Below are positions 1-44,072 of a DNA stretch of 64,000 nt, piece after piece. Position 1 is the stretch's first letter. The number at the start of each line of letters is the position of its first letter. Source of the stretch: an uncultured Alphaproteobacteria bacterium. GTDB lineage: Bacteria; Pseudomonadota; Alphaproteobacteria; Rhizobiales; Beijerinckiaceae. Position numbers and translations under genes: made by a program. The DNA is taken from positions 124,927 to 188,926 of the forward strand of contig CAVYDG010000024.1 in assembly GCA_963767245.1 (NCBI GenBank), in the 5' to 3' direction. Below the pieces are notes generated by a model. That model was not told the DNA's origin. It ran no database searches and worked only from the letters and a program-made list of their open reading frames with translations.

Positions 1-2678
1 GGCGTATCGGCGAGCAGCAAGTGGAGCCTGGACACCACAAATCCAACCATCGGCTCAGCCGAGGCGATGACCGCAACGCCGGTCGGCGGCGCGCTATGGC
101 CTCAAGCCGCACCAACCGGTCCCTATAATGGAACCGTCGCTGGCTATGGTCTCACCGTCGTCAGGCAGGGAACCCTCAGCATCTCGGTCAACGGAATTGT
201 CGTTTGCACCGACACCAATCAAACCTTCGACTGGAGTTTGCAGAGCGGGACTTGCACCGATTCCGGCGGCGGCGTGGTCGCCAGTTCGCTCATCAATTAT
301 TCCTCGGGCAATTACTCGCTCACGTTCAACAGCGCGCCCGCGAGCGGCGCGGCGATCACTGCCGCGTGGACGGCGTTGGTGTCATCGAATTTCCTCAAAT
401 ACGGGGAGCAGATCGACTTCATGTCCGGCGGCCCGACCACGGGCGTAAATGGCCCGGCGCCGGGCGGCAATGTCGCCGGCGCGGTGGCGCCGCTTCCGAA
501 CGGTCCTTCCGCCCATGCCCTCGGGGGCTGCAATCTGGACGGGACCGGCTTTCTGCAAGCGGGCAAGGGCTACCCGATAGGGGCGCTCGGGCTGACTCAA
601 ACCCACTCTTCGACCTACGGCTCGCGCTGGGCTGCGGCCTTTCCGCACGCCAACGCGAACATCCCGGTCGTCGTCTTTGCCCAGCAGCGGGCGGAATCGG
701 CGAGCAACATAACCAGCCGGGCCGCCGATTTTACCGATTGGCTCCCATGCGCGCAGTGGCCGCTCGACCTCGCCACGCTGTCGACCTTCACCGGCCAGAT
801 CAGCGGCGCGTCAGGTAACAACGGCCTCCTGACGCTGAAAAGCGCGGCGGTCGGGCTGTTGCCCCTGTGGGAAGGCGAAGTCATCGGCTGCAACCCGGTC
901 AGCGCCTCGTGCCCGATCACTCCGGGCACGCAAATCGTCAGCATCGCCAGGGGAGCGTGGGGCGCGAACGGCTCGACGTACAACGTCACTGCGCCGACCG
1001 CGATGGCGAATGTCGGCACGACCACCAACATGAACAATGGGGTTTATTATTACGGAGGCGGCCCAGCCTATTATGTCGGCCCGACCAACGACATCATCAT
1101 GGGCGCCCTCACTGTCGGGGGCGCCCTTCACCCGCTTTTCTCGGGGCCGTTCAGCGGGCCAAGGGCGACAAAACTGATCGGCGCGCTGACCTGGTCGCAT
1201 CTGACCGGCAACCCGACTGAGGCCGAACACCCGACGCTGACGAGAACTTCGTTCACCGGCTGCGACGCGGCTGCTGTGTCCGCCAACAATTCGCCCTGCT
1301 TCGACATCGGCTCGACCTTCCAGGCATCGGTCAGCGCCACCTGGTCCGGCTCGACAGTGACCGTCACTGGTGGCCTCGCTGCCAACGCTCGCCCGTTCGT
1401 TGACGGCATGGCGGTGTCATGCTCGGGCTGCAACTCGGGCCTGTTCATTCTTTCCGTGTCCGCTCCGCCGACGCAATCGACGGTTTCGGGCGCAGGTCAG
1501 GTCGGCAACACCTTCACCTTCACGACCAATGCGGCAATCGGGGGAAGCGGGTCGGGCACGATCAATGGCGGCTGTTCGGGCGCGTCGGGGGTCGGCTCGA
1601 ATTGCATCGACTTCAATTTCACCATCAACACCGCCGGAACCTACGTGACGGCGGCGGCGCTCGCCACCTGCGGCGTCAACAACATCCAGGGCACGGCGGC
1701 GAATTATACCGCGGCCAATGGCGGCTGCTTCAACTCCGGCAGCGGCGACATCGTGCGCGGCTTCAAGATCGGCACGTTGCAGGCGATGTACGGCGTCGGC
1801 TTCGGCAGCGGGAACGCCTACACCGATGCTGGCGTCGATACGTTGAACTTCGGCGTGGCGACGCAGAGTCAGGCGTTCACCTGCAACCTGGTCGGCAGCC
1901 CGGCGACGACCGTCCAGTGTGTGAAGGGTCCGACTTACGCCTATTCGGGCGGGTCGCTCACCACTTCGCTCGGGCAGTGGAGCACCGGGGCGACCTATGC
2001 CTCTTATGCGGACGGCATCAGCTATGCAGACAACATGGGAGCGTTGTGGGGCGCTGTCGGCGGCCAGAGCCTGCCCTTCACCGCTGGGTCCGGATACACC
2101 AACGGCGTCTACACCCTGCCGGGGCAAAGCTGCTCGCTTCAAGCCGTTGCTGGGGCCGCAGCCCCGACCGTGACGATCATCGTCGCCGGCGGATCAATCG
2201 CCGACGTGTACCCCAACGCGATGAGCAACGGCATTCAGGCCGGTTGCACCTTCGCGCTTGGAACCTTCACCTTCACCACGTCGGCGATGACTGGATCGGG
2301 ATCGACTCGGACGATTACCGTTTCGGGCACGCCTGGCGGCACGATCGCACCCGGCCAGGCGATCTCGGGAACATTCGGGACCGCAAACATTCTCGCCTAT
2401 ACCGGGACGCTGGCGGGGGGCGGCGCGGGGACCTACACCATCACCTGCGGCACATGCTCGTCCAACACCGCCGGAACGATTACCAACTCCAACACCATCC
2501 CGACCGCGATTGGGGCTGGGAGCGGTGGCGCGATCACGACCCTCAAGCTGGCCCCGCCGGAGGGCGCCGGCGGCATCGGCACCAACACCACCGACAACAA
2601 TATGCTGGGAACGATGATCTACGACAATTCCGGGCTTCCCGGCAATCCGCTGAACTCTGTGTTCACGACGGGATTTAG
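1..2678 (+). pseudogene. Large Gly/Thr/Ser/Cys-rich phage tail-fibre/adhesin-like protein, 5' part (frame open from base 1, so it probably starts upstream of the window); interrupted by IS1380
   Basis: Frame of ORF 67..2790 has no stop back to base 1. Very low in charged residues, many Cys pairs, and an 'INYSSGNYSLTFNSAPASGAAITAAW' motif resembling phage tail/baseplate repeats. Residues after base 2678 are IS-derived. Confidence 0.6.
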
Positions 2679-4326
2679 CCGCCATTTCTCAAACAGGGTA
2701 GCGCATCGGGTCGCCAAATCAGGCAAAAGTTGTTTTGCGAGAACGACTTGCGCTGATTTGGAGAGGCGGCCCGATGCAGACGGAGTGTAGCGCAGAACGG
2801 AGCATGTTTGGACGGGTCGAGGGTCGGGCCGTTATGGCGGAGTTCGACGGCGGCGCGCTGACGTCCGACGCGGGCGGCCTGCTGTTGGGCGCCGCCGACC
2901 AACGTCTGGGCCTAGTTCGCCGGATTGCGCGATGTTTTCGTGACGCGAGAGACCCGAGGCTCGTCGAGCACTCAGTCGCCACGCTCATCGGGCAGCGCGT
3001 GTTCGGCATTGCGCTCGGCTATGAGGATCTGAACGATCACGACGAGCTTCGTCACGACCCGCTGATGGCGGTGCTGGCGGGCAAGCTCGAGGCCAGGCGC
3101 GAGGATTGCGCGCCGGTGGCGGGCAAATCGACGCTGAACCGGCTCGAACTGTCGCGCGAGACGCCCACGAAGTACCGCAAGATCGCACATGAGCCCGCGG
3201 CGATCGAGGCCCTGTTCGTCGACCTGTTTGTCGAAGCGCACGCACGGGCGCCCAGGCAGATCATCCTCGACCTCGACGCCACGGACGACCCGCTGCACGG
3301 CGATCAGGAAGGCCGCTTCTTTCACGGCTACTATGATTGCTACTGCTACCTGCCTCTTTACGTGTTCTGCGGCCGGCATCTGCTGGCGGCCAAGCTCAGG
3401 CCGTCGAACATCGACGCCAGCGCCGGCTCGGTTGAGGAAGTCGCGCGCATCGTCGCGCAAATTCGCAGGCGTTGGCCGCGAACGCGCATCCTGCTGCGCG
3501 CCAACTCTGGGTTCGCCCGCGAGGCGCTGATGGCCTGGTGCGAGACGAACCGGGTGGACTTCGTCTTCGGGCTCGCTCGCAATGCGCGGCTGGTCGAAGA
3601 GATCAGCGTCGAACTCCTGCAGGCCGAGGCGGAGGCGTCCGCGACCGGCAAGCCCGCTCGCCGCTTCAGGGACTTCCGTTATGCGACGCTCGACAGCTGG
3701 TCGCGCCGGCGCCGGGTCGTCGCCAAGGCGGAATGGACAAACGGCGAGGCCAATCCGCGCTTCATCGTCACCTCGTTGAACAAGGCCGAGACCAGCGCCC
3801 GCTTTCTCTATGAGAAGGTCTACTGCGCCCGCGGCGAGATGGAGAACCGGATCAAGGAATGCCAAGGCGACCTGTTCGCCGACCGAACCTCGACCGCAAC
3901 CCTGGGCGCCAACCAGCTGCGGCTCTGGCTCGCCTCGTTCGCCTATGCGCTCCTGTGCGCCCTCAGGCGCATCGGTCTTGCCCACACCCAGTTCGCCGAA
4001 GCGACCTGCGGCACAATCCGGCTCAAGCTCCTCAAGCTCGCCGGTCTCGTCCGCGTCAGCGCGCGGCGCATCAAATTCGCGCTCGCCTCAGCCTGTCCCT
4101 ACGCCGACGAATGGCGGCTGGCCGCCGCCCGCCTCGTCACAACCGCCTGACGCGTCGCCGCGACGCCGAAAAAACGCGGCAATCCAACCCACAGCCCACC
4201 GGAGACCCCCAAAAGACCGACCCCATCCGCGCAAACCGCGCCAGGGATGCGCTCGTCCTCACTACAGTCACTGCGCAATCATTGTCGGGGCGCGAAAGAC
4301 CAAGCCCCTCCTATGAGAAAACCGGG
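2679..4326 (+). mobile_element. IS1380-family insertion sequence, 1648 bp, 4-bp target duplication TTAG
   Basis: TTAG at 2675-2678 and 4327-4330. Imperfect terminal IRs: left CCGCCATTTCTCA, right (reverse complement) CCCGGTTTTCTCA. Encloses a transposase. Confidence 0.93.
2774..4150 (+). CDS. IS1380-family DDE transposase (second catalytic Asp appears to be Asn)
   Basis: FDGGALTSDAGGLLL, GYEDLND, LDLDATDD, HGDQEGRFF and RGEMENRIKE motifs. RANSGF where the family has RADSGF. Confidence 0.95.
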   Translation: MQTECSAERSMFGRVEGRAVMAEFDGGALTSDAGGLLLGAADQRLGLVRRIARCFRDARDPRLVEHSVATLIGQRVFGIALGYEDLNDHDELRHDPLMAVLAGKLEARREDCAPVAGKSTLNRLELSRETPTKYRKIAHEPAAIEALFVDLFVEAHARAPRQIILDLDATDDPLHGDQEGRFFHGYYDCYCYLPLYVFCGRHLLAAKLRPSNIDASAGSVEEVARIVAQIRRRWPRTRILLRANSGFAREALMAWCETNRVDFVFGLARNARLVEEISVELLQAEAEASATGKPARRFRDFRYATLDSWSRRRRVVAKAEWTNGEANPRFIVTSLNKAETSARFLYEKVYCARGEMENRIKECQGDLFADRTSTATLGANQLRLWLASFAYALLCALRRIGLAHTQFAEATCGTIRLKLLKLAGLVRVSARRIKFALASACPYADEWRLAAARLVTTA

Positions 4327-4511
4327 TTAGCACCGGCTGCACAGCGGCGCCGTGGTGCTACTTCACCCCGGGAATCCCGGTGCTGCCGTTCGGCAACGCG
4401 CTCGGGGCGGCGATCAGCGGCGGCTTCCCTCTCTGGAGCCTAGCCTGTTTCTGCATGGTTCCCCGGCGGCGCGCCGCTAACGGCAATCGTCGCCTCGCGG
4501 AAGCCGCTTAG
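4327..4511 (+). pseudogene. Detached 3' end (~60 codons) of the large tail-fibre-like gene
   Basis: Removing 2679-4326 plus one TTAG restores the frame: ...TTGF-STGCTAAPWCYFTPGIPVLPFGNALGAAISGGFPLWSLACFCMVPRRRAANGNRRLAEAA*, stop TAG at 4509-4511. Confidence 0.85.
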
Positions 4512-4730
4512 CGGAGGCGCGCGCCATGTTCGACGCGAACATTAACATCAACATCATCGCGGTCGGAATCTTCGCCTTCCCGTTTGAACATCGGCGCCGC
4601 CAGGACTGTCTACCGGCGCGCGGCTAGTGGGACAACAGCCACATCCCGATCGCCGAGCGGCGGAGCGGCAATCCCCAGCCGACCTGTCCTATCCGCAACT
4701 GGGCGCGGCCAAGATCGACGAGGGCTTGCC

Positions 4731-4922
4731 ATGATCGACGCCATGCTCCGGCTCTATTTCGCCACCTACGGAGCGCCGATGGCGTTCGCCGCCGGCATCG
4801 TCAGCGCCGCGCAACCTGAACGGCAGCGGTATCTCGCCTGTGAGCGCCGCGCGGCGTCAATCGAGCGCGACGAGGAGATCGAGCGGCTCGAGCGCCGGCT
4901 CACCGAACTCAGGCGGAGATAG
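4731..4922 (+). CDS. Small hypothetical protein (63 aa, C-terminal coiled coil)
   Basis: ATG 4731 with GAGGG upstream; 3' half of track ORF 4584..4922; sits in a tightly packed same-strand run. Confidence 0.5.
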   Translation: MIDAMLRLYFATYGAPMAFAAGIVSAAQPERQRYLACERRAASIERDEEIERLERRLTELRRR

Positions 4923-4926
4923 AGCG

Positions 4927-5034
4927 ATGGGGCCCTGTCCGGCGAATCTGAGACAGGCGGCGGTCGTAGTTCTCGCCGCCGGAGCGCTGGTCTGTCTCGC
5001 CATCGGCGTGGCGATCGGGCGGTGGCTCCCATGA
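4927..5034 (+). CDS. Small single-TM peptide (35 aa)
   Basis: MGPCPANLRQAAVVVLAAGALVCLAIGVAIGRWLP; its stop overlaps the next ATG (ATGA at 5031-5034). Confidence 0.45.
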   Translation: MGPCPANLRQAAVVVLAAGALVCLAIGVAIGRWLP

Positions 5035-5477
5035 GAGACGCGGCGATAGCTATGCGCATTACCTTTCTGTCGCATTTCGTCATTTGCCTCGCGTGCACGG
5101 GCCTGGCGTTTTTTGCCTGGGTGAACGACGTGCCGCAAACAATCTGGGCTGACGACATGAGCATGATGACCTCCGTCATCGCTGCGCTGTTCACCTTCAC
5201 TGCGGTCTGCCTCGGCTGGCAGGCGTGGCGGATCGATGGGCGGTACGTCGTCGACCCCAGCTTCGGCCATCTCGCCGAACGCCTCTCCGTCATGTTCGGT
5301 TTCGTCGGCACGGCGATCGGCCTTTCCCTCCAGGCGACCGCGCTCGCCACCGGCGCGACCTCATTCGGCGCGCTCGCCACGTCGCTATTCACGACGGCCT
5401 GCGGCGGCGCCGCGGCCATCGGCATCGCGGTCATGACGTACAACCTCGAGGCGGGGATCGGGAGGGCGCGGCGGTGA
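5031..5477 (+). CDS. Minimal MotA/TolQ/ExbB-like proton-channel membrane protein (148 aa)
   Basis: Several hydrophobic segments with 'MFGFVGTAIGL' and 'ALATSLFTTACG', matching the two Thr-bearing channel helices of the MotA/TolQ/ExbB family. ATGA/GTGA overlaps at both ends. Confidence 0.72.
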   Translation: MRDAAIAMRITFLSHFVICLACTGLAFFAWVNDVPQTIWADDMSMMTSVIAALFTFTAVCLGWQAWRIDGRYVVDPSFGHLAERLSVMFGFVGTAIGLSLQATALATGATSFGALATSLFTTACGGAAAIGIAVMTYNLEAGIGRARR

Positions 5478-6075
5478 GGGACCGCAGCCCGATCTGGATT
5501 GGCCTCGCCGACCTTCTTCTCTGCGTCGTCTGCGTGGTCATCTGCGCCGTTGCGCCGATCAAGGCCAAGACAGATGGCGTCAACCCAAAGCTGAATATCT
5601 ACTCTCGGCCGACTGGGACGTCATGCTCGATTCGGATGTCGATCTTTGGGTCGTCAATCCGTCGCCCAAGCCCATATTCTACGGCTCCCGGCAGGTCGGT
5701 TGCGCCGATCTCGATCGCGACAGTCTCGGGTTCCAGACCTCGCTGGTGACGCTCGCCGACGGGTCGACCGTTCGCGCCGTCTCGAACAAGGAAGTGACAT
5801 CGGTTCGCTGCTTCGAGCCGGGTCACTGGGACATCGGGGTCAACCTCTATTCCGACCGCGAACTCGCCAAGGGCCGGAAGGACATCAAGGTTCATGTCGA
5901 AATCGTCGGCCTCAACCCGGAGGTTCGCACGATCTTCGCCAAGGACGTGACCCTCGATCGCGTCGGCGAAACCGTGAACGTCATTTCTTTCGACATGGAC
6001 CGCGCCGGCAAGATCACGCTCACCGATCCGCCGCTCGAGCCAATTACCGACGCTTATTGGGGGCGGAAGGAATGA
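5474..6075 (+). CDS. ExbD/MotB-like single-TM protein (TM Asp) fused to a YfaP/DUF2135-like periplasmic domain; -1 frameshift at ~5590
   Basis: GTG 5474 gives VRDRSPIWIGLADLLLCVVCVVICAVAP...GVNPK; the -1 frame continues AEYLLSADWDVMLDSDVDLWVVNPSPKPIFYG...LDRDSLG into track ORF 5623..6075. Confidence 0.68.
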
Positions 6076-6583
6076 CCTTTTTGAGCGCCTTCGCGCTTTC
6101 GTTCGGACTTTTGCTCGCCGGTCTGTCGCTCATTGCCGCATGGATGTTCCGCACCGCCGGGCGCCCTTGGCGGTCAAACTTGCCCTGCCGGCCCTATTGC
6201 TCGCCCTCGCTTGTCTTACTCCGTACGAAGTCAATTCGATGCTCGGCCTGCCGAGAATCGCCGAGCTCGCTGCGCTGCCTGAGCGGGCCGAACTCATAGC
6301 CTTCGTCGCCCATGACGCGGACAAGCGCGCCGACTTGTGGCTCCGCGTCGAGGATGCTCCGCCGCGCGCCTATGAGATCGCCATCGACAAAGAGATGAAG
6401 AAATTGCTGCAGGACGCTCGCGATCGCAAGGAACATGGCCGACGGGTGATGCTGGTCATGCGGGCCGCGGCTACCGGCAAAGAAACCGGGCGCCAAGGCG
6501 TGATCAGGTTGCGATCCGCCGATCCTGCCTACGCAATTGATGAGAGCGCCTTCGCCCTCCCGAACAAGGGCCGTGGCGACTAA
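6072..6583 (+). CDS. Two-TM membrane protein with periplasmic 'DLWLR...PPRAYEI' domain; -1 frameshift at ~6160
   Basis: ATG 6072 overlaps the previous stop. MTFLSAFALSFGLLLAGLSLIAAWMFRTAG joins track ORF 6140..6583 (APLAVKLALPALLLAL...). Confidence 0.62.
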
Positions 6584-6618
6584 CGGCCAACAACTGAGAT
6601 CCCTCCAGGAGACCCCCG

Positions 6619-6996
6619 ATGCTGCATAGGCTCACCACTGCCCTCACCGCCTCTCTTGTGCTTTGGGGCGCCGCAAATGGGGCGGAAGTCTCGCATCCCC
6701 GGTGCGAGGCCATGGATAAGCTCAAAGCGGAGTTCGACACCAAGACCCATGCCGTCGAGCTCGACCCGGGGCAGTTTCATTTCATTGAAGGCGTCTATGT
6801 CGGCTCACCGGCCACTCCGGATGGCCTCCCGCCAGGCGACGGCGCCCTGCTCGTGACTCACGACGGCGACGGAGGCGGAATCATCGTCTGGACCCGCGGC
6901 AAGCTCGCCTGCGCTCCGAGCCCCGTTAGCGACCGGCTTATCAAACTCATGGCCCGCGTCAAGACCGGCGCCGGCGAGGAGGACGGCACGCTTTGA
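6619..6996 (+). CDS. Secreted hypothetical protein (125 aa)
   Basis: AGGAG RBS upstream; N-terminal signal-peptide-like segment ending ANG-AE; two Cys. Confidence 0.65.
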   Translation: MLHRLTTALTASLVLWGAANGAEVSHPRCEAMDKLKAEFDTKTHAVELDPGQFHFIEGVYVGSPATPDGLPPGDGALLVTHDGDGGGIIVWTRGKLACAPSPVSDRLIKLMARVKTGAGEEDGTL

Positions 6997-7012
6997 TCCC
7001 GCCCGGCCCGCC

Positions 7013-8465
7013 CTACGGGAATCACACAAGCGATTTGCCGTGGGCGATTGCATAACCGTCGAGCATGGCGGCGAGGCGACGCCAACCATCGGCCATGGTT
7101 TTGGGTCCGGGCGGCTTGTAATAGGCGTTCCAGCCGCCGAGGCGGGCGGTGATCCATGCGAGCCAAGAGAGGGAGCCGCGCGGGTGTGGGTTCTTCTGCC
7201 GCATTGTTTTTCCTTCCAAGGCGCCGCCGATGGCGGCGGCGGCTTCGACCGCGCTTTCGTCGATCACGTCGGTTGCGGGGCGGGAGCCCGCGTCCCGGGC
7301 GTCGGTGAGTTGAAGGATTCGCGCCGCTGCGACCACGGCGAGGGCAGCGAGGTTGAACAGGCGCCGCGCGCTCTCGACCTGCGTCTCTTCCAGAGCCAAG
7401 CCGTCGCGTTTAAGCACGCGGAAGACCTCTTCGATGCGCCAGCGCAGACGATAGAGGCGAATGATTTCCCGAGCGTCCTCGGCGGTCTCAACCGGCAAGG
7501 TCGTCAAAAGCCGCCACATCAGCGGCGTGGTCCCCAAAGGAACGTCCCTTTCGCGCGCCACAACGACGTTGATCTCGCAGGCTTCGGGATCGCCGGCGGC
7601 CTGTCCGGTCTTGGGTCTGGCGATTGTCGCCTTGCCGAACGAAACGGCCACGCGGGCCGTTCGAACGCGCGCATCCGGCGCGCGCGGCTGGCGTGGGGCG
7701 GCCGCCACATCGATCTCGAGCGCCGTCGGAAAACCGTCGGCTGTGGCAAACAGGAGGCCGCCTCCGGCCAACTTGCGGTCGCCGCGCGCCCGCGTGATGA
7801 GATCGACGTCGCCCGGCTTTCGGATGAAGGCCTGGTAGATGTCATTCTCGCGGTCGCCGACAACAACGATGCTGGCGGCGTCGGCGAGCCGTTGAGCCGC
7901 GCTCTGCGCCGCATCGACCCAGCGCACGGATTCCTTGTCCTTGAGGCTCCGCTTGTGGCGATGCGTCTTCACTTCGCCGAGCGCGCGGGTCCAAATCTTC
8001 GCCCCCACTACGCCCAGAAGCGCTTCATCGTCGGCGTCGACGGCGACAAGCAAATGAATGAAGAAGCCGAGACTTGTCCCGTCGCCGCCCAGCCCCAGCT
8101 TCCGCCCCTTGTCGCGCCCGGCGAAATTGATCTCGGTCGTGTCCTGCGCCACGACAACGCGCCGACCCCGGCAAGCCTGCGCCGTGCGTTGGGCGGCCTC
8201 CTCCGTGATCGCTTCCGGGGTCGCCTGCTCCGATCCGAGAAAGCGATGGGCCGCTATCTCCCCCGCGCGATCCCGGCCAAACTTGCGAACCACCAGCGCG
8301 CCAGAACCGGCGATGTCCTCGAGGATCCGTTCAAATCGGCGAGAAACTCGAATATCGCCGCAGAAACCATCGCCCATCAACGCCTCCCGAAAACCGAACA
8401 GGCGTTAAATCAGAAGCCCAAACCATATGCCAGTCGAAAACGACTCGATTGTGTGAACGCCGTAG
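7013..8465 (-). mobile_element. IS4-family insertion sequence, 1453 bp, 10-bp target duplication CCGGCCCGCC
   Basis: CCGGCCCGCC at 7003-7012 and 8466-8475. 17-bp IRs CTACGGGAATCACACAA / CTACGGCGTTCACACAA (3 mismatches). Confidence 0.94.
7022..8380 (-). CDS. IS4-family (Tn5/IS50-like) DDE transposase
   Basis: QDTT, VGDREND and YRLRWRIEEVFRVLK (YREK) motifs. Confidence 0.95.
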   Translation of the reverse strand: MMGDGFCGDIRVSRRFERILEDIAGSGALVVRKFGRDRAGEIAAHRFLGSEQATPEAITEEAAQRTAQACRGRRVVVAQDTTEINFAGRDKGRKLGLGGDGTSLGFFIHLLVAVDADDEALLGVVGAKIWTRALGEVKTHRHKRSLKDKESVRWVDAAQSAAQRLADAASIVVVGDRENDIYQAFIRKPGDVDLITRARGDRKLAGGGLLFATADGFPTALEIDVAAAPRQPRAPDARVRTARVAVSFGKATIARPKTGQAAGDPEACEINVVVARERDVPLGTTPLMWRLLTTLPVETAEDAREIIRLYRLRWRIEEVFRVLKRDGLALEETQVESARRLFNLAALAVVAAARILQLTDARDAGSRPATDVIDESAVEAAAAIGGALEGKTMRQKNPHPRGSLSWLAWITARLGGWNAYYKPPGPKTMADGWRRLAAMLDGYAIAHGKSLV

Positions 8466-8510
8466 CCGGCCCGCCAAATTCGTCTCTCTCTCCCTGAAGG
8501 ACGCCATCTC

Positions 8511-9458
8511 ATGGAGACTTTATACGTGGTGACCTGCGTCGCGAACCCGCTGCTGTGGAGGTCGCGGGCAGCCTTGGCGCGGGCCGCGATCGTCGACTGG
8601 CTCAAGGAGCCAAACCTCCACATCACCCTCGCCGAATGCGCCTACGGCTCGCGCGGCTACGAGCTCGCCGATCTCGCATCCGATCGCCTCGCCCATATCG
8701 AATTGCGCGCGACGACGATGGCCTGGTCGAAGGAGAACCTCATCAATATCGCGATCTCGCGCCTGCCGCCGGCGGCGCAGAAGATCGCGGTTCTGGACGC
8801 CGACATCACCTTCCGCCGCGACGGGTGGGCGACCTCCGCCCTCGCCGCGCTCGACCTCTATCCGGTCATTCAGCCGTGGTCCGTATGCTACGATCTCGGG
8901 CCGAACGACGAACATATCGGTGTCCACCAAGGCTTCGCCTCGGTCTGGCACGCCGACAAGCCGGTCGTCCCGAACGGTAAGACATTCTGGCTCTCGGAAG
9001 GCGGTCCTTACGCCTACCCGCATCCGGGCTACGCCTGGGGCTGGCAGCGGCGGATCCTCGACCGCATCGGCGGCCTGTTCGAACTTGCCGGCATGGGCGC
9101 CGGCGACCATCACATGGCGCTCGGCATGGTTGGCGAATATCGCTATTCGCTACCTCGAGGAGCGGCAAAAAGCTACGAACTCGCGGTCGCCACCTGGGCT
9201 GAGCGCGCCACGCGCGAGGTCAATGGCAAGCTCGGCTTCGCCCATGGCTCGATCGAGCACCCGTTCCATGGGCGAAAAAGCGACCGCGGCTATCAATCGC
9301 GTTGGGCGATGTTCCTCGACAGCGGCTTTGACCCTGTTATCGACCTCAAGCGCAACAGCCATGGCGTCCTTGAATTCTCGGGCGCCAATCCCAACCTTGA
9401 ACGCGCCTTTGACCGCTACCTCCGCTCGCGCGAGGAGGACGTCAATACGCTGACGTAA
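8511..9458 (+). CDS. Putative GT-A-fold nucleotide-diphospho-sugar transferase (315 aa)
   Basis: WSKENLINIAISRLP followed by a DxD motif (LDADITF), then 'GYAWGWQR...IGGLFE...GAGDHHM'. Confidence 0.55.
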   Translation: METLYVVTCVANPLLWRSRAALARAAIVDWLKEPNLHITLAECAYGSRGYELADLASDRLAHIELRATTMAWSKENLINIAISRLPPAAQKIAVLDADITFRRDGWATSALAALDLYPVIQPWSVCYDLGPNDEHIGVHQGFASVWHADKPVVPNGKTFWLSEGGPYAYPHPGYAWGWQRRILDRIGGLFELAGMGAGDHHMALGMVGEYRYSLPRGAAKSYELAVATWAERATREVNGKLGFAHGSIEHPFHGRKSDRGYQSRWAMFLDSGFDPVIDLKRNSHGVLEFSGANPNLERAFDRYLRSREEDVNTLT

Positions 9459-9463
9459 GAGAC

Positions 9464-9491
9464 GCAGGCAGCGGAAAGCCTGTCTGCTTTC
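9464..9491 (+). terminator. Possible weak intrinsic terminator
   Basis: 8-bp stem GCAGGCAG/CTGTCTGC (one G-U pair) followed by only TTT, 5 nt after the stop of 8511..9458. Confidence 0.3.
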
Positions 9492-9581
9492 GCCCGGTGG
9501 TTCGAGATTGCCACCGCGCGACCTTACAGCATCTGGGGACCTCCAAACACTCCGCAGCCAGCTGGCCTTAACAAGGACGAC

Positions 9582-9941
9582 ATGAATGCACCGGAAAGCC
9601 CGCCCTGGGGTTTTCTTCAATGGGCGGCCGCAGGATTGGCGTCAATCGGGGCGAGCGCGGCCGCATTTGTCTGGCGACTGATGACCCGGCTTCACGCTCT
9701 CGAGATCGCTGCCCGGCAGCACCGGCACGATCTCGATGTGTCGCAGTCAGCCAATGAATCTGCGCTCTTGCGTCTTGCTGAAAGACTGGCGTTGCTGCAT
9801 GACGATCACTATCGGCTGCGCGAGACGATCGGCGCGCTTCCCAGTCGCGCAGACATTCATGATCTGGAGCTTAGCTTGGGCGAGCGCATGGAGTCGCTCG
9901 CCGTTCGCTTTGACCGAGCTTTCGACGCTCGTGTTTCATGA
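9582..9941 (+). CDS. Phage-type TM plus coiled-coil protein, DUF2730-like
   Basis: N-terminal hydrophobic helix, heptad-rich body, 'LPSRADIHDL' motif; AAGGA RBS upstream. Confidence 0.5.
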   Translation: MNAPESPPWGFLQWAAAGLASIGASAAAFVWRLMTRLHALEIAARQHRHDLDVSQSANESALLRLAERLALLHDDHYRLRETIGALPSRADIHDLELSLGERMESLAVRFDRAFDARVS

Positions 9942-37908: not shown

Positions 37909-38857
37909 ATGTCCGCCGCCATCCTTCAAAACCCGATCTTCACCGATACTGACAAGGCCCGCCAATGGCTTGAGGCCCGCATTTGGGCTTCTGGGCGACC
38001 CTGCCCACACTGCGGCGTTGTCGATAACTCCACGGCTCTCCAAGGCTCCAAGCACCGTCCCGGTGTCTACCAGTGCAACGCCTGTCGCGAACAATTCACA
38101 GTGACGGTAGGAACGGTTTTCGAGCGCTCCAAAATTCCGCTCTGCAAATGGCTCGCGGCACTCTTTCTCATGGTTTCCAGCAAGAAAGGCGTATCCGCGC
38201 ACCAAGTTCACCGCTTGCTTGGCATCTCATACAAGAGCACATGGTTCATGATGCACCGTTTGCGCGAAGCAATGCGCTCAGGTGATCTTGCTCCGATGGG
38301 TGGTTCGGGCAATGGTCGTTGAGGTTGACGAGACGTTCATCGGCAAGCGTGAAGGCTTCGAAGCTAAGCCGGGTTGGGTCCGCCACAAGAACACGGTTCT
38401 GACGCTCGTGGAGCGCGGAGGTCGTGCGCGTTCATTCCATATCGACGAGGCGACAAAAGAGAACATCGTCCCCATCGTAAATGAGAACCTAAACCGCGAA
38501 AGCCATCTGATGACGGACGAGGCTCGCCGTTACGAGACAATCGGCAAGGACTTTGCCGCTCATGACGTTGTCGATCATCATCGCGGCGAATACGGCTACA
38601 CGGACCACGAGACGGGCGCGAAGGTCAACACGAACACCGTCGAAGGCTATTACTCAATCTTCAAGCGCGGCATGAAAGGCGTTTATCAGCACTGCGGTGA
38701 AAAGCATCTGCACCGCTATCTGGCAGAGTTCGATTTCCGTTATAGCAACCGCTCTGCCCTTGGCGTCGAGGACCGCGAGCGTGCTGACTTGCTGGCGAAG
38801 GGCATCGTTGGCAAGCGCCTTACCTATCGACGGCCTCACGGGCTCAATGTCGCCTAA
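37909..38857 (+). pseudogene. IS1595-family transposase with N-terminal Zn ribbon; frameshift at ~38311
   Basis: CPHC...CNAC ribbon, TVTVGTVFE and KSTWFMMHRLR, then VEVDETF, LMTDE and NTVEGYYS...YLAEFDFRY in the next frame. Confidence 0.9.
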
Positions 38858-38882
38858 CAAGCGCAATTGGGAGTTCTAGGGA

Positions 38883-39137
38883 ATGACCGTAACCCCACGC
38901 GAGCTTAGGCGCGTACGTTTCAGCGCGCCTAACTCAGAAACTCGATCTCTAACGATCCATCTTCATGCAGGACCGATCGACCATGAGGAATCCATCGTCC
39001 TCTCGGTCTCTTGCGACGGGCTGATGAGTTTAATGCGAGGGATTCAGGAATATCGGGCTCTGCATAAACTCCCCATTCCTCATACTGTGAGGCGGAAGGG
39101 AAAACCCTCTCTCTCTGTCGTATCTGATCATCGCTAG
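38883..39137 (+). CDS. IS passenger hypothetical protein (84 aa)
   Basis: ATG 25 nt after the transposase stop; ends RKGKPSLSVVSDHR. Confidence 0.45.
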   Translation: MTVTPRELRRVRFSAPNSETRSLTIHLHAGPIDHEESIVLSVSCDGLMSLMRGIQEYRALHKLPIPHTVRRKGKPSLSVVSDHR

Positions 39138-39287
39138 CGCGCTCTTTTTGGCGATGCTGCGGCCCGCTCTTTGACACCGTATCGACGGCGCGCTCAAATC
39201 GCTCCCACGCATCGGGAACCAACTCGACTTCCTTGGTGCCTCTCATAAGGTCATCCTTATCACGCGCCATACATTGGAACCACCCCA

Positions 39288-39908
39288 ATGGTCGAAACGC
39301 CAGCGCTGCCGCCACAACAAAATATCACAATCACGACAAACTTATTAACCGCCCCGCTATACGCCGAGCAACTAGGGCACCTTTGTGTTGCATGGTCCAA
39401 TCTTGAGTGGCACATGTTTCTATTGTTTCAGTTTATCTGCGGAGCGCCACCAGCAGTCGCTAGAACAACTTTCTACGCGATAGAAAGTAATCGGGGCAGA
39501 CGGGAAATATTGAAGTCAGTAGGAGGGGCCGTACTCTCCAAGCAAAGTCACAGAGACGCACTTGATGACATTCTCCGCCGAATTGGCAAAACAGCCTCTG
39601 TAAGAAACAAATATGTCCATGACACATGGGGTGTCGCGGCCACTCAAAAGCATGAAATCTTTCAAATGCGACTATCCAACCCGCAAACATTTCAAGATAT
39701 GGAGGAAGTTACGGTATCCGATCTAAAAACTTGTTGTGAAAATATTCAAAAAGTCACTGAGGCGCTGAACGATTTCCGGGAGAAGGTTCACCCATCGCTC
39801 GAATCATCGCTACGAACACTTCGCGAACAGCCTGGGATAGCCCTGCAGTTCGCCAAGAAAGGCAGTCATCCGGGACAGAAGCCAAAAGGGCATCGACGCC
39901 AGCGTTGA
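39288..39908 (+). CDS. IS passenger protein with HEPN-like Rx4H motif (putative RNase toxin/defence effector)
   Basis: Helical protein 'GHLCVAWSNLEWHM...LDDILRRIGKTASVRNKYVHDTW'; RNKYVH at 39603-39620; visibly AT-richer than the flanks. Confidence 0.6.
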   Translation: MVETPALPPQQNITITTNLLTAPLYAEQLGHLCVAWSNLEWHMFLLFQFICGAPPAVARTTFYAIESNRGRREILKSVGGAVLSKQSHRDALDDILRRIGKTASVRNKYVHDTWGVAATQKHEIFQMRLSNPQTFQDMEEVTVSDLKTCCENIQKVTEALNDFREKVHPSLESSLRTLREQPGIALQFAKKGSHPGQKPKGHRRQR

Positions 39909-40026
39909 TCATCTTATGTGAAACCATAGGCGAGCCTGCGCGTGCTTTAGCGCGGGACACCTTCACGCCGGCCTGTCCCGCTTCGTTTAACATCCCATCC
40001 TCGGCTTTGTCAACGTTATAATCGCC

Positions 40027-41992: not shown

Positions 41993-42547
41993 TTGATGAA
42001 TATTGGCCAAGTTCTCAGCAATTTACCCAATCTGGTCACACTGGCGCGAATGCTGATGACGCCTTTGGCCGTAATGATGATCATTTCGCAGCGATTCCTT
42101 CCGGCGTTTTTGATTTTTATCCTCGCCGGCGTCTCGGACGCGATCGACGGCTTTATCGCCAAAAATTTCGATCTCCGCACCGAGTTGGGCGCTTACCTTG
42201 ATCCCCTGGCCGATAAAGCGCTGTTGATCTCCATCTATGTTTCGCTCGCGATTTATGCCGATTTGCCGGCCTGGATCGCCGTCACGGTCGTATCGCGGGA
42301 CGTGATGATTCTCTTCGCCGTTTTGGTCTCCTGGCTGCTCGACAAACCGGTCGAAATTCGCCCCGTCTGGGTGTCGAAGTTCAACACGGTCGCGCAGATC
42401 GCGCTCGCGGGCTTCGCGCTTGGAGTTCGCGCCTACGGCCTCGATGCTCAGCCCGTGCAGACCTGCCTTGAGTGGGCGGTCGCCGGGACAACCGTGGCCT
42501 CGGGCGGCGTCTATATTGCCCAGTGGCTGAACCACATGAGCCGTTAG
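41993..42547 (+). CDS. CDP-alcohol phosphatidyltransferase (PgsA-like)
   Basis: NLPNLVT and SDAIDGFIAK...GAYLDPLADK. Confidence 0.9.
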   Translation: MMNIGQVLSNLPNLVTLARMLMTPLAVMMIISQRFLPAFLIFILAGVSDAIDGFIAKNFDLRTELGAYLDPLADKALLISIYVSLAIYADLPAWIAVTVVSRDVMILFAVLVSWLLDKPVEIRPVWVSKFNTVAQIALAGFALGVRAYGLDAQPVQTCLEWAVAGTTVASGGVYIAQWLNHMSR

Positions 42548-42555
42548 GCGCCGCT

Positions 42556-42966
42556 ATGCTCCAGCGCGTTGCCGCCGTCACCGTTCTGGTCCCTAGCTAC
42601 GACGAGGGCCTCGCCTTCTTCCGCGACGCCCTCGGTTTCGCAGTTCTCGAAGACACGCCACTCAGTTCCGACAAACGCTGGATCGTAGTCGCCGGATCGC
42701 AATCCGCAGCGGCGGCGCTCGTGCTTGCAGTTCCCAGTGACGAGCGCCAGAGGGCTCGCCTCGGCGACCAGACCGGGGGGCGGGTCGGCTTTTTCCTTCA
42801 CACCGCGGACTTTTGGGGCGATTACAAAACCATGCGCGCTCGCGGGGTCAGATTCCTTGAAACGCCGCGCCGCGAGCCGTATGGGCTGGTCGCAGTGTTC
42901 CTCGATCCCTGGGGCGGCAAATGGGACCTGCTGCAGCCAGCTGGCAGACCCGGTGAAATCCGATGA
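42556..42966 (+). CDS. VOC/glyoxalase-family protein
   Basis: YDEGLAFFRDALGF, GDQTGGRV and PRREPYGLVAVFLDPWGGKWDL. Confidence 0.85.
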   Translation: MLQRVAAVTVLVPSYDEGLAFFRDALGFAVLEDTPLSSDKRWIVVAGSQSAAAALVLAVPSDERQRARLGDQTGGRVGFFLHTADFWGDYKTMRARGVRFLETPRREPYGLVAVFLDPWGGKWDLLQPAGRPGEIR

Positions 42967-44072
42967 GGGTGGAGCGCCAGGTTCTGTTCTGGGCCGCCGC
43001 AATTGCGGCAGTCTTGTACGTCGTGTATTTGCTCGGGTCGACAATAACGCCTTTCGCGGCCGGCATCGTGCTCGGCTACCTTCTCGACCCCGTCGTAATC
43101 AAGCTTCAGAGGTTCGGATTCAACCGTCTGGGCGCGTCGCTCTTCATTCTGATCGCTTTCGCCCTGGGCATGGTGATTGTCCTCATTCTCGTCGCTCCGG
43201 TTTTGAGCAATCAATTCATAGATTTTTCCCAACGCCTGCCGGACTACGCGGTGCGTCTCCAGGCCCACGCCGTGGAGGAGGGCAACGCCCTCATTGCGAA
43301 ATACGGCGGCGGCTGGCTGCGCGCCTTGGGCCTCAGCCAACAGCTGTCGAGCGCGCAAATTCAGAGCTCGATTAGCAATTTTGTCACCCAGGGCGCACAG
43401 TGGCTTCTCAATGCCATCAGATCGCTCGTCTCCGGCGGCGCGGCGGTATTCAGTTTCTTGTCGTTGCTGATCATCACGCCTGTCGTCGCCTTCTATATTC
43501 TGATCGACTGGCATCGCATGATCTCGGAAATCGACAGCTGGCTCCCGCTCGACTACCGAGACAGTCTGCGAAAAATCGCTGCGGAGATAAATCACGCTTT
43601 CGCGGGTTTCATCAGGGGCCAGTCGATCGTCTGCCTGTTCCTGGGGATCTGGTACGGCGTCGGATTGACGCTAATCGGCCTGGATTTTGGATTCCTGATC
43701 GGCGTGTTGGGCGGCCTTCTGAGTTTCGTGCCCTACGTGGGATCGCTGACCGCGCTCGTCCTCTCGCTCGGAGTCGCGCTTGTTCAGGGCTGGCCAAGTC
43801 TGAAGCTCTTCTTCATGGCGCTCGCCGTTGTCGGGGTCGGTCAATTTCTCGAGGGAAACGTGCTGTCGCCGAAGCTTGTCGGATCATCGGTCGGACTTCA
43901 CCCGGTCTGGCTGATGTTCGCGCTGTTGGCCTTTGGCCAATTGTTCGGATTTCTCGGGCTCCTGATCGCCGTTCCAATGGCTGCTGCAATCGGCGTCGTG
44001 GCCCGCCATCTGATCGCGGTCTACCTGAGGAGTCCACTTTATCGAGGCCGCTCGGCGTCGGACAGCCGATGA
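42963..44072 (+). CDS. AI-2E (PerM-like) family transporter
   Basis: Multiple TM helices; GFIRGQ, FVPYVG and PKLVGSSVGLHP. Confidence 0.9.
   Translation: MRVERQVLFWAAAIAAVLYVVYLLGSTITPFAAGIVLGYLLDPVVIKLQRFGFNRLGASLFILIAFALGMVIVLILVAPVLSNQFIDFSQRLPDYAVRLQAHAVEEGNALIAKYGGGWLRALGLSQQLSSAQIQSSISNFVTQGAQWLLNAIRSLVSGGAAVFSFLSLLIITPVVAFYILIDWHRMISEIDSWLPLDYRDSLRKIAAEINHAFAGFIRGQSIVCLFLGIWYGVGLTLIGLDFGFLIGVLGGLLSFVPYVGSLTALVLSLGVALVQGWPSLKLFFMALAVVGVGQFLEGNVLSPKLVGSSVGLHPVWLMFALLAFGQLFGFLGLLIAVPMAAAIGVVARHLIAVYLRSPLYRGRSASDSR

Follow-up and report, generated by a model that had tools for sequence, protein, structure and literature searches.

A phage- and prophage-associated gene trio that may encode a minimal ion-driven complex of the MotA/TolQ/ExbB superfamily

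Ion-driven motors of the 5:2 type, such as MotAB, ExbBD, TolQR, GldLM and ZorAB, are under intensive study as a unified class. To our knowledge, all characterised members are cellular, and the cytoplasmic domain of the A subunit defines their output. A stretch of 64,000 nucleotides from an uncultured Beijerinckiaceae bacterium (GenBank assembly GCA_963767245.1, contig CAVYDG010000024.1; hereafter the window, in whose numbering all positions are given) carries three small overlapping membrane protein genes, g1, g2 and g3, in prophage-like surroundings. A first-pass annotation had proposed that they form a compact motor of a separate type. Can so small a set of genes belong to this class, and what would a phage do with it? 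We favour, with slightly better than even confidence, the reading that g1 serves as the A subunit and g2 as the B subunit of a stripped-down ion-driven 5:2 complex of the MotAB/ExbBD/TolQR/ZorAB class, carried by phages of the Hyphomicrobiales and having an envelope accessory role. The genes are as follows (aa, amino acids; ORF, open reading frame; TM, transmembrane).

5031 to 5477, plus strand: g1, an intact ORF of 148 aa, putative minimal MotA/TolQ/ExbB-superfamily A subunit with four predicted TM helices.
5474 to 6075, plus strand: g2, GTG start at 5474, 200 aa after frame repair, B-subunit-like.
6072 to 6583, plus strand: g3, ATG start at 6072, 170 aa after frame repair, two hydrophobic helices followed by a conserved domain.
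4927 to 5034, plus strand: small ORF of 35 aa with one hydrophobic helix, its stop overlapping the g1 start.

The codon overlaps described in the first-pass annotation were found where it had placed them. ATGA at 5031-5034 joins the stop of the 35-aa ORF to the start of g1, GTGA at 5474-5477 joins the g1 stop to the g2 start, and ATGA at 6072-6075 joins the g2 stop to the g3 start. Membership of the 35-aa ORF in the module is doubtful; it is called as a gene in the near-identical contig L001, and there is no gene call at that position in a second relative, L002. A -1 shift near 5581-5590, already recognised in the first-pass annotation, is needed for g2 to reach its stop at 6075, and a -1 shift near 6158-6161, which had been missed, is needed for g3 to reach its stop at 6583. 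The rebuilt lengths of 148, 200 and 170 aa are exactly those of the intact genes of L001, which has ~97% DNA identity to the window over the trio stretch, continues with genes of 125 and 315 aa and contains no insertion sequence (IS) elements. Searches returned 398 homologues of g1, 348 of g2 (200-201 aa) and 38 of g3. Judged by these comparisons, the trio is far beyond chance. For each gene the conserved homologues number in the dozens to hundreds, and ~24 further loci have all three.

The conserved core of g1 consists of GFVGTAIG in TM3 and ALATSLFTTACGG in TM4, and GFVGTAIG and ALATSLFTTACG are both present in the intact 148-aa protein. The positive-inside rule gave a MotA-like topology, with the N-terminus in and four TM helices, and the AlphaFold2 (AF2) model consisted of four long helices (mean confidence score, pLDDT, of 70). 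The cytoplasmic loop between TM2 and TM3 has ~15 residues in g1 and varies from 15 to 40 residues across homologues, the protein ends 11 residues past TM4, and there is no folded cytoplasmic domain between the TM helices. A profile built from 37 close homologues (A1) gave only one PDB match at E <= 10. This was Aquifex MotA (E 1.7), with the alignment falling on the GxxGTxxG and TTxxG motifs. When run against 1.8 billion cluster representatives, the same profile recovered 193 proteins at E <= 1e-3, nearly all of 140-180 aa. The 398 close homologues of g1 carry no Pfam annotation. Across the range of the family, PF01618 was matched by 60 of 77 full-length members sampled (best E 1.1e-12). It was the sole Pfam match of a relative at 68% identity (E 0.016), and scored 32.6 bits, against a gathering score of 22.9, in a relative found at E 4e-30 with the g1 profile.

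A diversified g1-family profile (A3) matched solved structures of Aquifex MotA (8gqy, E 2.9e-10), TolQ (1e-9), PomA, ExbB and ZorA (0.007-0.03). Profile alignment of A3 with E. coli TolQ, ExbB and MotA using hhalign gave a probability of 94% (E 1.3e-7). In the alignment with TolQ, T94 of g1 pairs with T145, T122 with T178, G125 with G181, and Y137-N138 with Y-N. T94 and T122 are invariant among the 37 close homologues. In the known systems, Thr145 and Thr178 of TolQ are essential with Asp23 of TolR, as are Thr148 and Thr181 of ExbB with Asp25 of ExbD (PMC12905483). On this evidence of profiles and residues, we place g1 in the MotA/TolQ/ExbB superfamily. Published A-subunit classes have either condensed cytoplasmic domains of two or three helices or torque interfaces of four or five (PMC12505986). 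g1 lies outside these classes because its TM2-TM3 segment is only a short variable loop.

g2, translationally coupled to g1, begins with a short basic N-terminus. Residues 5-26 form a TM helix, residues 42-184 (window 5597-6027) a beta-sandwich, and the linker of 12-15 residues between the two is poorly modelled; the AF2 model comprised the TM helix and the sandwich (pLDDT 71). As first described, GLADLLL lies in the single TM helix of the rebuilt protein and the DVDLWV...LDRD motifs lie in its soluble part. The aspartate of this helix, Asp13, is invariant in the 37 close homologues. Asp13 and Glu41 alone are invariant across 11 diverse g2-like proteins with 26-71% identity, a set that includes three versions from lytic phages and two distant ones from metagenomes. 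The top PDB match of the diverse g2 profile was the TM helix of ZorB (8qyd chain F), in which the Asp residues coincide, but at a non-significant E of 0.24; hhalign of the g2 family against E. coli TolR, ExbD and MotB was likewise not significant, though the Asp was aligned. By its position, topology and TM aspartate, and without a significant sequence match, g2 looks like a B subunit.

The periplasmic part of g2 differs from those of known B subunits. No MotB_plug, ExbD or OmpA match was found by Pfam among 37 family members, and both this and the sandwich model agree with the earlier statement that an OmpA-like domain is absent; an ExbD/TolR-type periplasmic domain is absent too. A fold search of the g2 model against the PDB returned only generic beta-sandwiches, none significant (best E 0.016). 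The DUF2135-like domain suggested in the first-pass annotation proved to be the commonest Pfam match of the family (14 of 37) and in agreement with two JGI annotations of homologues, but it is sub-threshold, with a best E of 0.044. PHROG 1735, whose function is not annotated, was matched weakly. In BFVD, the sandwich matched large uncharacterised phage proteins (best E 2e-5 to 5e-4, range to 2e-3), including proteins of Campylobacter phages CP21 and IBB35, of Cellulophaga phage phi4:1 and a 'tellurium resistance-like' siphovirus protein.

In g3, a basic loop separates two hydrophobic helices, and a conserved AELIAFVAHD...DLWLR...APPRAYE core follows, in line with the two helices and DLW...PRAY domain noted earlier. 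The positive-inside rule puts the C-terminal domain in the periplasm. The genes that follow g2 in phages share this architecture and are mutually homologous (E 1e-18 to 1e-22), and the g3 profile matched two of the three (1.4e-6 and 3.7e-4, both from small searches). The suggestion that g3 may be a TonB/TolA-like load gained no support: g3 had no Pfam or NCBIfam match and no TonB/TolA similarity, and inspection of the alignment by eye showed no conserved His or SHLS-type motif in its TM helices. The second helix (residues ~42-49; window 6195-6215) ends L-A-L-A-C-(L/A)-T-P-Y, with an apparently invariant Cys in a lipobox-like context, and is preceded by a basic stretch that starts at an internal Met. 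The phage versions are without the Cys. The Roseiarcus-type g3 might be lipid-modified or alternatively started.

g3 accompanies the g1-g2 pair throughout, and a further gene, overlooked in the first-pass annotation, often does so.

6619 to 6996, plus strand: p125, 125 aa, signal peptide, predicted periplasmic.

p125 is a recurrent, non-universal fourth gene of the module, since it lies after g3 in window-type loci and before g1 in distant relatives.

Species-representative genomes were scanned with sequence patterns, which gave 40 loci, nearly all in soil metagenome-assembled genomes (MAGs) of Roseiarcus and other Hyphomicrobiales. The trio was present in 18 of these 40 MAG loci, on two IMG/VR contigs and in the phages RHph_N34, RHph_N3_19 and RHph_I1_18. 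Co-occurrence of the three genes is thus widespread and extends to lytic phages. In distant g1 relatives on readable contigs, an overlapping g2-like gene with a TM Asp follows in every one. A scan with the phage-type g2 alignment gave two loci only. Beside the module of one distant relative lies an Acyl_transf_3 gene (L058, 1053-2036). O-antigen acetylases, which are typical of lysogenic conversion, are among the members of that family.

Four genomic contexts were distinguished. The first is the late region of a prophage or gene transfer agent (GTA)-like element. On an IMG/VR contig, genes for a portal, protease, capsid-like protein, adaptor, tail completion protein and tape measure are followed by an RcGTA-like distal tail set, two conserved tail genes and a hypervariable 2,380-aa fibre, and then by g1-g2-g3. 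In several species p125, p315, an Amidase_2 + PG_binding_1 endolysin and c119 come next in this element, which abuts the same fmt-like and purD genes (p315 and c119 are listed below). These structural and tail genes upstream and the endolysin downstream bear out the phage context assumed at first. The second context is that of stand-alone trios, which share ~80% identity with each other but have unrelated flanks, in one case including an IS. In the third, the trio is found in three lineages of lytic Rhizobium phages, namely the RHph_N34/P10VF type (153-158 kb), the RHph_N3_19 type (68 kb) and RHph_I1_18 (171 kb). Here the genes encode 113-148, 194-200 and 144-154 aa, overlap or are closely spaced, and lie among replication genes; 20-23 GenBank phage records annotate them only as hypothetical proteins. 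The fourth context is an orphan g2 without trio partners, seen at 22 loci. Neither the stand-alone cassettes nor the orphans had been anticipated.

Comparison with known systems showed the module to be most like ExbBD and TolQR in layout, most like MotA in topology and best sequence match, and Zorya-like as a non-flagellar, phage-related member. With ExbB-ExbD and TolQ-TolR it shares the order of A then B with overlapping codons, and the g1 core helices align with TM2-TM3 of TolQ with both essential threonines conserved. g2 has the short cytoplasmic N-terminus, single Asp-bearing TM helix, short linker and compact periplasmic domain of ExbD and TolR, and, as in the Tol and Ton systems, a third membrane-anchored periplasmic protein, here g3, is encoded next door. 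In contrast, ExbB and TolQ have three TM helices rather than the four of g1, and their cytoplasmic domain is essentially missing from g1; the g2 sandwich is not the ExbD/TolR fold, g3 does not resemble TonB or TolA, and the present module is phage-borne. With the MotA/PomA stators it has in common the four-TM topology and the best solved-structure match, and the g2 motif W-I-x-x-A-D-L-L resembles those of MotB, PomB and ZorB. Unlike MotAB and PomAB, it is without a torque-generating cytoplasmic domain, a plug or long linker, an OmpA-like peptidoglycan-binding domain and flagellar genes nearby.

Zorya ZorAB is likewise a non-flagellar MotAB-type pair on mobile elements, and a phage-related role is plausible for the present module; ZorA was matched by the g1-family profile, and ZorB, at a non-significant E, was the top match of g2. 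The module differs in having neither the long cytoplasmic tail of ZorA nor the peptidoglycan-binding domain of ZorB, and in being encoded by phages themselves, lytic ones included. From its architecture, we consider the module to be a variant of the superfamily that lies outside every named system, because it is without an A-subunit cytoplasmic domain, an OmpA- or ExbD-type B domain, and TonB/TolA or ZorC-E partners. The trio is the smallest relative of MotA/ExbB-MotB/ExbD motors seen in the present analysis, and our searches of the literature turned up no account of a minimal MotA/ExbB module encoded by a phage.

In the favoured reading, a g1 pentamer would enclose a g2 dimer, and protons would pass via Asp13 and T94/T122. 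All soluble or folded domains of the module are predicted to be periplasmic. Because there is no cytoplasmic interface, any work or signal would act on the periplasmic side, on the g2 sandwich, g3 and p125 or by way of them; alternatively, the output would be a simple gated proton flux. The role would be an envelope-level accessory function in infected or lysogenic cells. Our leading guess, and the weakest step of the proposal, is that the module excludes superinfecting phages or causes an abortive depolarisation triggered from the periplasm. Exclusion and defence modules are expected in the accessory regions of lytic phages, at prophage cargo positions and in mobile stand-alone cassettes. This guess is made because the trio occurs in lytic phages among replication genes, as prophage cargo, and in mobile stand-alone cassettes with unrelated flanks. 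T4 Imm and Sp and lambda RexB are small inner-membrane or periplasm-facing proteins from accessory regions that act at the envelope or by depolarisation. They offer a functional analogy to the module, not homology; no sequence or fold relationship was found.

A more ambitious form of this proposal, which we put forward only tentatively, is that the module, encoded by phages of Alphaproteobacteria, is the smallest self-contained 5:2 proton-driven machine, an A pentamer free of any cytoplasmic domain around a B dimer with a new periplasmic beta-sandwich; that it works together with g3, and often p125, wholly in the periplasm; that it senses or repels incoming phages or remodels the envelope; and that the B subunit has been domesticated as a chromosomal orphan, which may pair with host TolQ or ExbB. 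If true, the module would be a minimal system in which to dissect how proton flow is converted into work. Phages, and not hosts alone, would deploy 5:2 motor machinery, which raises the question of what a lytic phage gains from a periplasmic device coupled to the proton-motive force. As the module is present in cultured, sequenced Rhizobium phages with known laboratory hosts (RHph_N34, P10VF and RHph_N3_19), it is accessible to genetics.

Several results weigh against the favoured reading. g1 alone had no match in Pfam, NCBIfam or PADLOC and none significant in PHROGs; it thus fell short of PF01618 by itself, although its family grades into PF01618 without a break. More broadly, searches of these four databases with g1, g2, g3, p125 and the small upstream ORFs were without significant result, apart from the weak match of g2 to PHROG 1735. 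The close-family g1 alignment was not significant against the three E. coli sequences, and only the diversified alignment gave a significant profile-profile match to them. Foldseek of the g1 model against the PDB put many ExbB, TolQ and MotA chains near the top, none of them significant for this model of pLDDT 70 (best ExbB, E 0.32). g2 had no significant match to any B subunit by Pfam, PDB profile or hhalign. No PADLOC model, Zorya included, was matched by g1, g2, g3 or p125, in a scan that did not extend to the neighbours for ZorC/D/E. The position of the module just upstream of an endolysin fits a lysis function equally well.

The orphan g2 genes also belong on this side of the balance.

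Orphan g2 loci: L011-L020, L022-L029, L038, L041, L043 and L044 (for example, L013: 6360-10597).

None of the 22 has g1 or g3 within 10 kb. All occupy one conserved chromosomal position, where the gene order is dapE on the minus strand, a CI-LexA-like repressor also on the minus strand, orf310, orf75 (not found in L022) and g2. The orphan g2 is as conserved as dapE, with 83-89% identity in 21 of the 22 genomes. Apparently it can work without a neighbouring A subunit, and it has the look of a gene that was domesticated, or that stems from a cryptic prophage, and is kept by purifying selection. This either weakens the idea of an obligate pair or suggests that TolQ or ExbB of the host is the partner. 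The CI-LexA-like repressor of this locus, of the helix-turn-helix/S24 type, is 90-97% identical across species and thus more conserved than dapE.

The rival explanations were then weighed in turn. It is possible that the module in the window is a dead remnant, in which g2 and g3 are true pseudogenes in a decaying prophage. The two frameshifts speak for this, as do the missing endolysin and two IS insertions that cut the fibre-like gene upstream and split p125 from p315. Relative to L001, however, both frameshifts are single-base homopolymer deletions: the window is one A short in the AAA run of g2 (~5581-5583) and one G short in the GGGG run of g3 (~6158-6161), with more single-base homopolymer differences near the two sites. 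The extra A at 5581 is present in short-read contigs of independent soil metagenomes (two runs), and the extra base at 6158/6160 was also found in independent soil-metagenome short-read contigs, one of them without any further difference from the window at that site. Other genes of the window and L001 likewise change frame relative to each other, as expected of long-read errors. Because they are single-base homopolymer deletions, have intact relatives and are contradicted by independent short-read contigs, both frameshifts are probably errors of long-read assembly and not pseudogenisation. We therefore regard a dead remnant as unlikely. The deletion in g2 makes a zero-frame X XXY YYZ slippery heptamer, C CCA AAG, at 5584-5590, and a -1 slip there would restore full-length g2, altered by one K-to-N substitution. 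Programmed frameshifting was rejected in view of the intact relatives and the reads, and the heptamer is probably a coincidence of the homopolymer deletion.

It is about equally unlikely that the module is a lysis clock or depolarising channel, in which g1 and g2 form a regulated proton leak, akin to a pinholin or a partner of a holin, that collapses the membrane potential to time the endolysin and does no mechanical work, with g3 and p125 as envelope-disruption helpers. This would suit the prophage-type loci, where the module is placed directly between the tail fibre and the Amidase_2 + PG_binding_1 endolysin, followed by c119, and it would suit the small size of g1, with four TM helices and no cytoplasmic domain. 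In RHph_N34, a 42-aa ORF (EVC06_148; L006, 6912-7040) with a lipoprotein-like signal by eye (…FLSSC) overlaps the end of the g3-like gene, an arrangement reminiscent of an i-spanin/o-spanin pair. Against this, the trio lies among replication and early-type genes in all three lytic lineages, with no annotated endolysin within the examined flanks, and there is no endolysin near the stand-alone cassettes. Moreover, the module is kept in the window and in L001, neither of which has an amidase, and PHROG lysis families were not matched by g1-g3, p125 or the small upstream ORFs. A holin or spanin identity for g1 or g3 was supported neither by homology nor by the lytic-phage context.

A third possibility is that the module is a surrogate or hijacker of the Tol/Ton systems. 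The phage would bring either a TolQR/ExbBD-like energiser of its own or a B subunit that inserts into TolQ/ExbB pentamers of the host. In this way outer-membrane energisation would be kept up or redirected during infection, and the orphans would be copies of g2 that were domesticated and work with A subunits of the host. The layout, closest to ExbD/TolR with its short linker and compact periplasmic domain, is consistent with this, as are the two best matches of the g1-family profile, MotA and TolQ, and the conservation of orphan g2 with no A subunit within 10 kb. However, g3 has neither TonB/TolA similarity nor an SHLS-type His motif, the g2 sandwich is unlike the ExbD/TolR fold, and no link from the module to an outer-membrane receptor was found. 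We think this possibility quite improbable.

The least credible alternative, and a very improbable one, is that g2 is not a motor subunit and instead is a membrane-anchored periplasmic DUF2135-like beta-sandwich whose TM Asp and adjacency to g1 serve oligomerisation, anchoring or the like; the lack of a significant B-subunit match, the 22 loci without g1, the weak DUF2135 matches and the recurrence of the sandwich in large uncharacterised phage proteins (BFVD; PHROG 1735) would accord with it, but Glu41 alone is as strictly kept as Asp13, g2 comes straight after g1 every time in module loci and shares overlapping codons with it, the top PDB match is the Asp-bearing TM helix of ZorB, and g1 retains the partner threonines.

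The surroundings of the module in the window are prophage-like, with the following features.

1003 to 2769, with the 3' end at 4297 to 4524, plus strand: fibre-like gene, 629 aa relative to L001, directly upstream of the module and interrupted by an IS.
2678 to 4326, plus strand: IS element with a 471-aa transposase at 2735-4150; it cuts the fibre-like gene, with ~3 bp of target overlap.
7013 to 8465, minus strand: IS element with a 452-aa transposase at 7022-8380, in the intergenic region of p125 and p315, with ~10 bp of target duplication relative to L001.
8511 to 9458, plus strand: p315, 315 aa, a conserved neighbour of the module in prophage-type loci; contains a DAD motif.
9582 to 9941, plus strand: c119, 119 aa, an N-terminal hydrophobic helix, then coiled-coil-like by eye; it closes the element ahead of the fmt-like gene.

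Both IS insertions are genuine structural differences from L001. The tail-fibre-like neighbour named in the first-pass annotation is real in the form of the 629-aa gene, but the 907-aa ORF at 67-2790 is itself chimeric. It is an artefactual fusion of the last ~270 codons of a 1309-aa gene with the 629-aa gene and a read-through into the IS end, and changes frame near 730-744. The window neighbours of the trio are the IS transposases, p315, c119 and the fmt-like gene. The statement that tonB, tolA and flagellar genes are not adjacent was upheld, with no E. coli-type Tol, Exb or Mot gene anywhere in the window. c119 follows the Amidase_2 endolysin in relatives, and this endolysin is absent from the window. 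p315 had no Pfam, PHROG or PDB match, and its only homologue among GenBank phages is in the Xanthomonas jumbo phage XaC1 (30% identity, full length). Family scans did not support a glycosyltransferase, guessed from the DAD motif. A tRNA scan of the window was empty, with no attachment-site tRNA, as was an Rfam scan of the whole window, with no RNA element. The one metatranscriptome provided no usable RNA evidence, with two tiny contigs upstream of the module and none on it.

Judging from gene content and order, the element that bears the module may have been inherited vertically, as a GTA-like or domesticated prophage, instead of integrating freely. The element (window 1-9941; also L002, L007, L010, L021, L042 and L049/L064) has an RcGTA-like distal tail gene order, and it adjoins the same fmt-like and purD genes across species whose housekeeping proteins are only 74-87% identical. 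Elsewhere in the window, positions 38001-40000 and 42001-44000 show a local dip in GC content (0.537) and a strong negative AT skew (-0.24).

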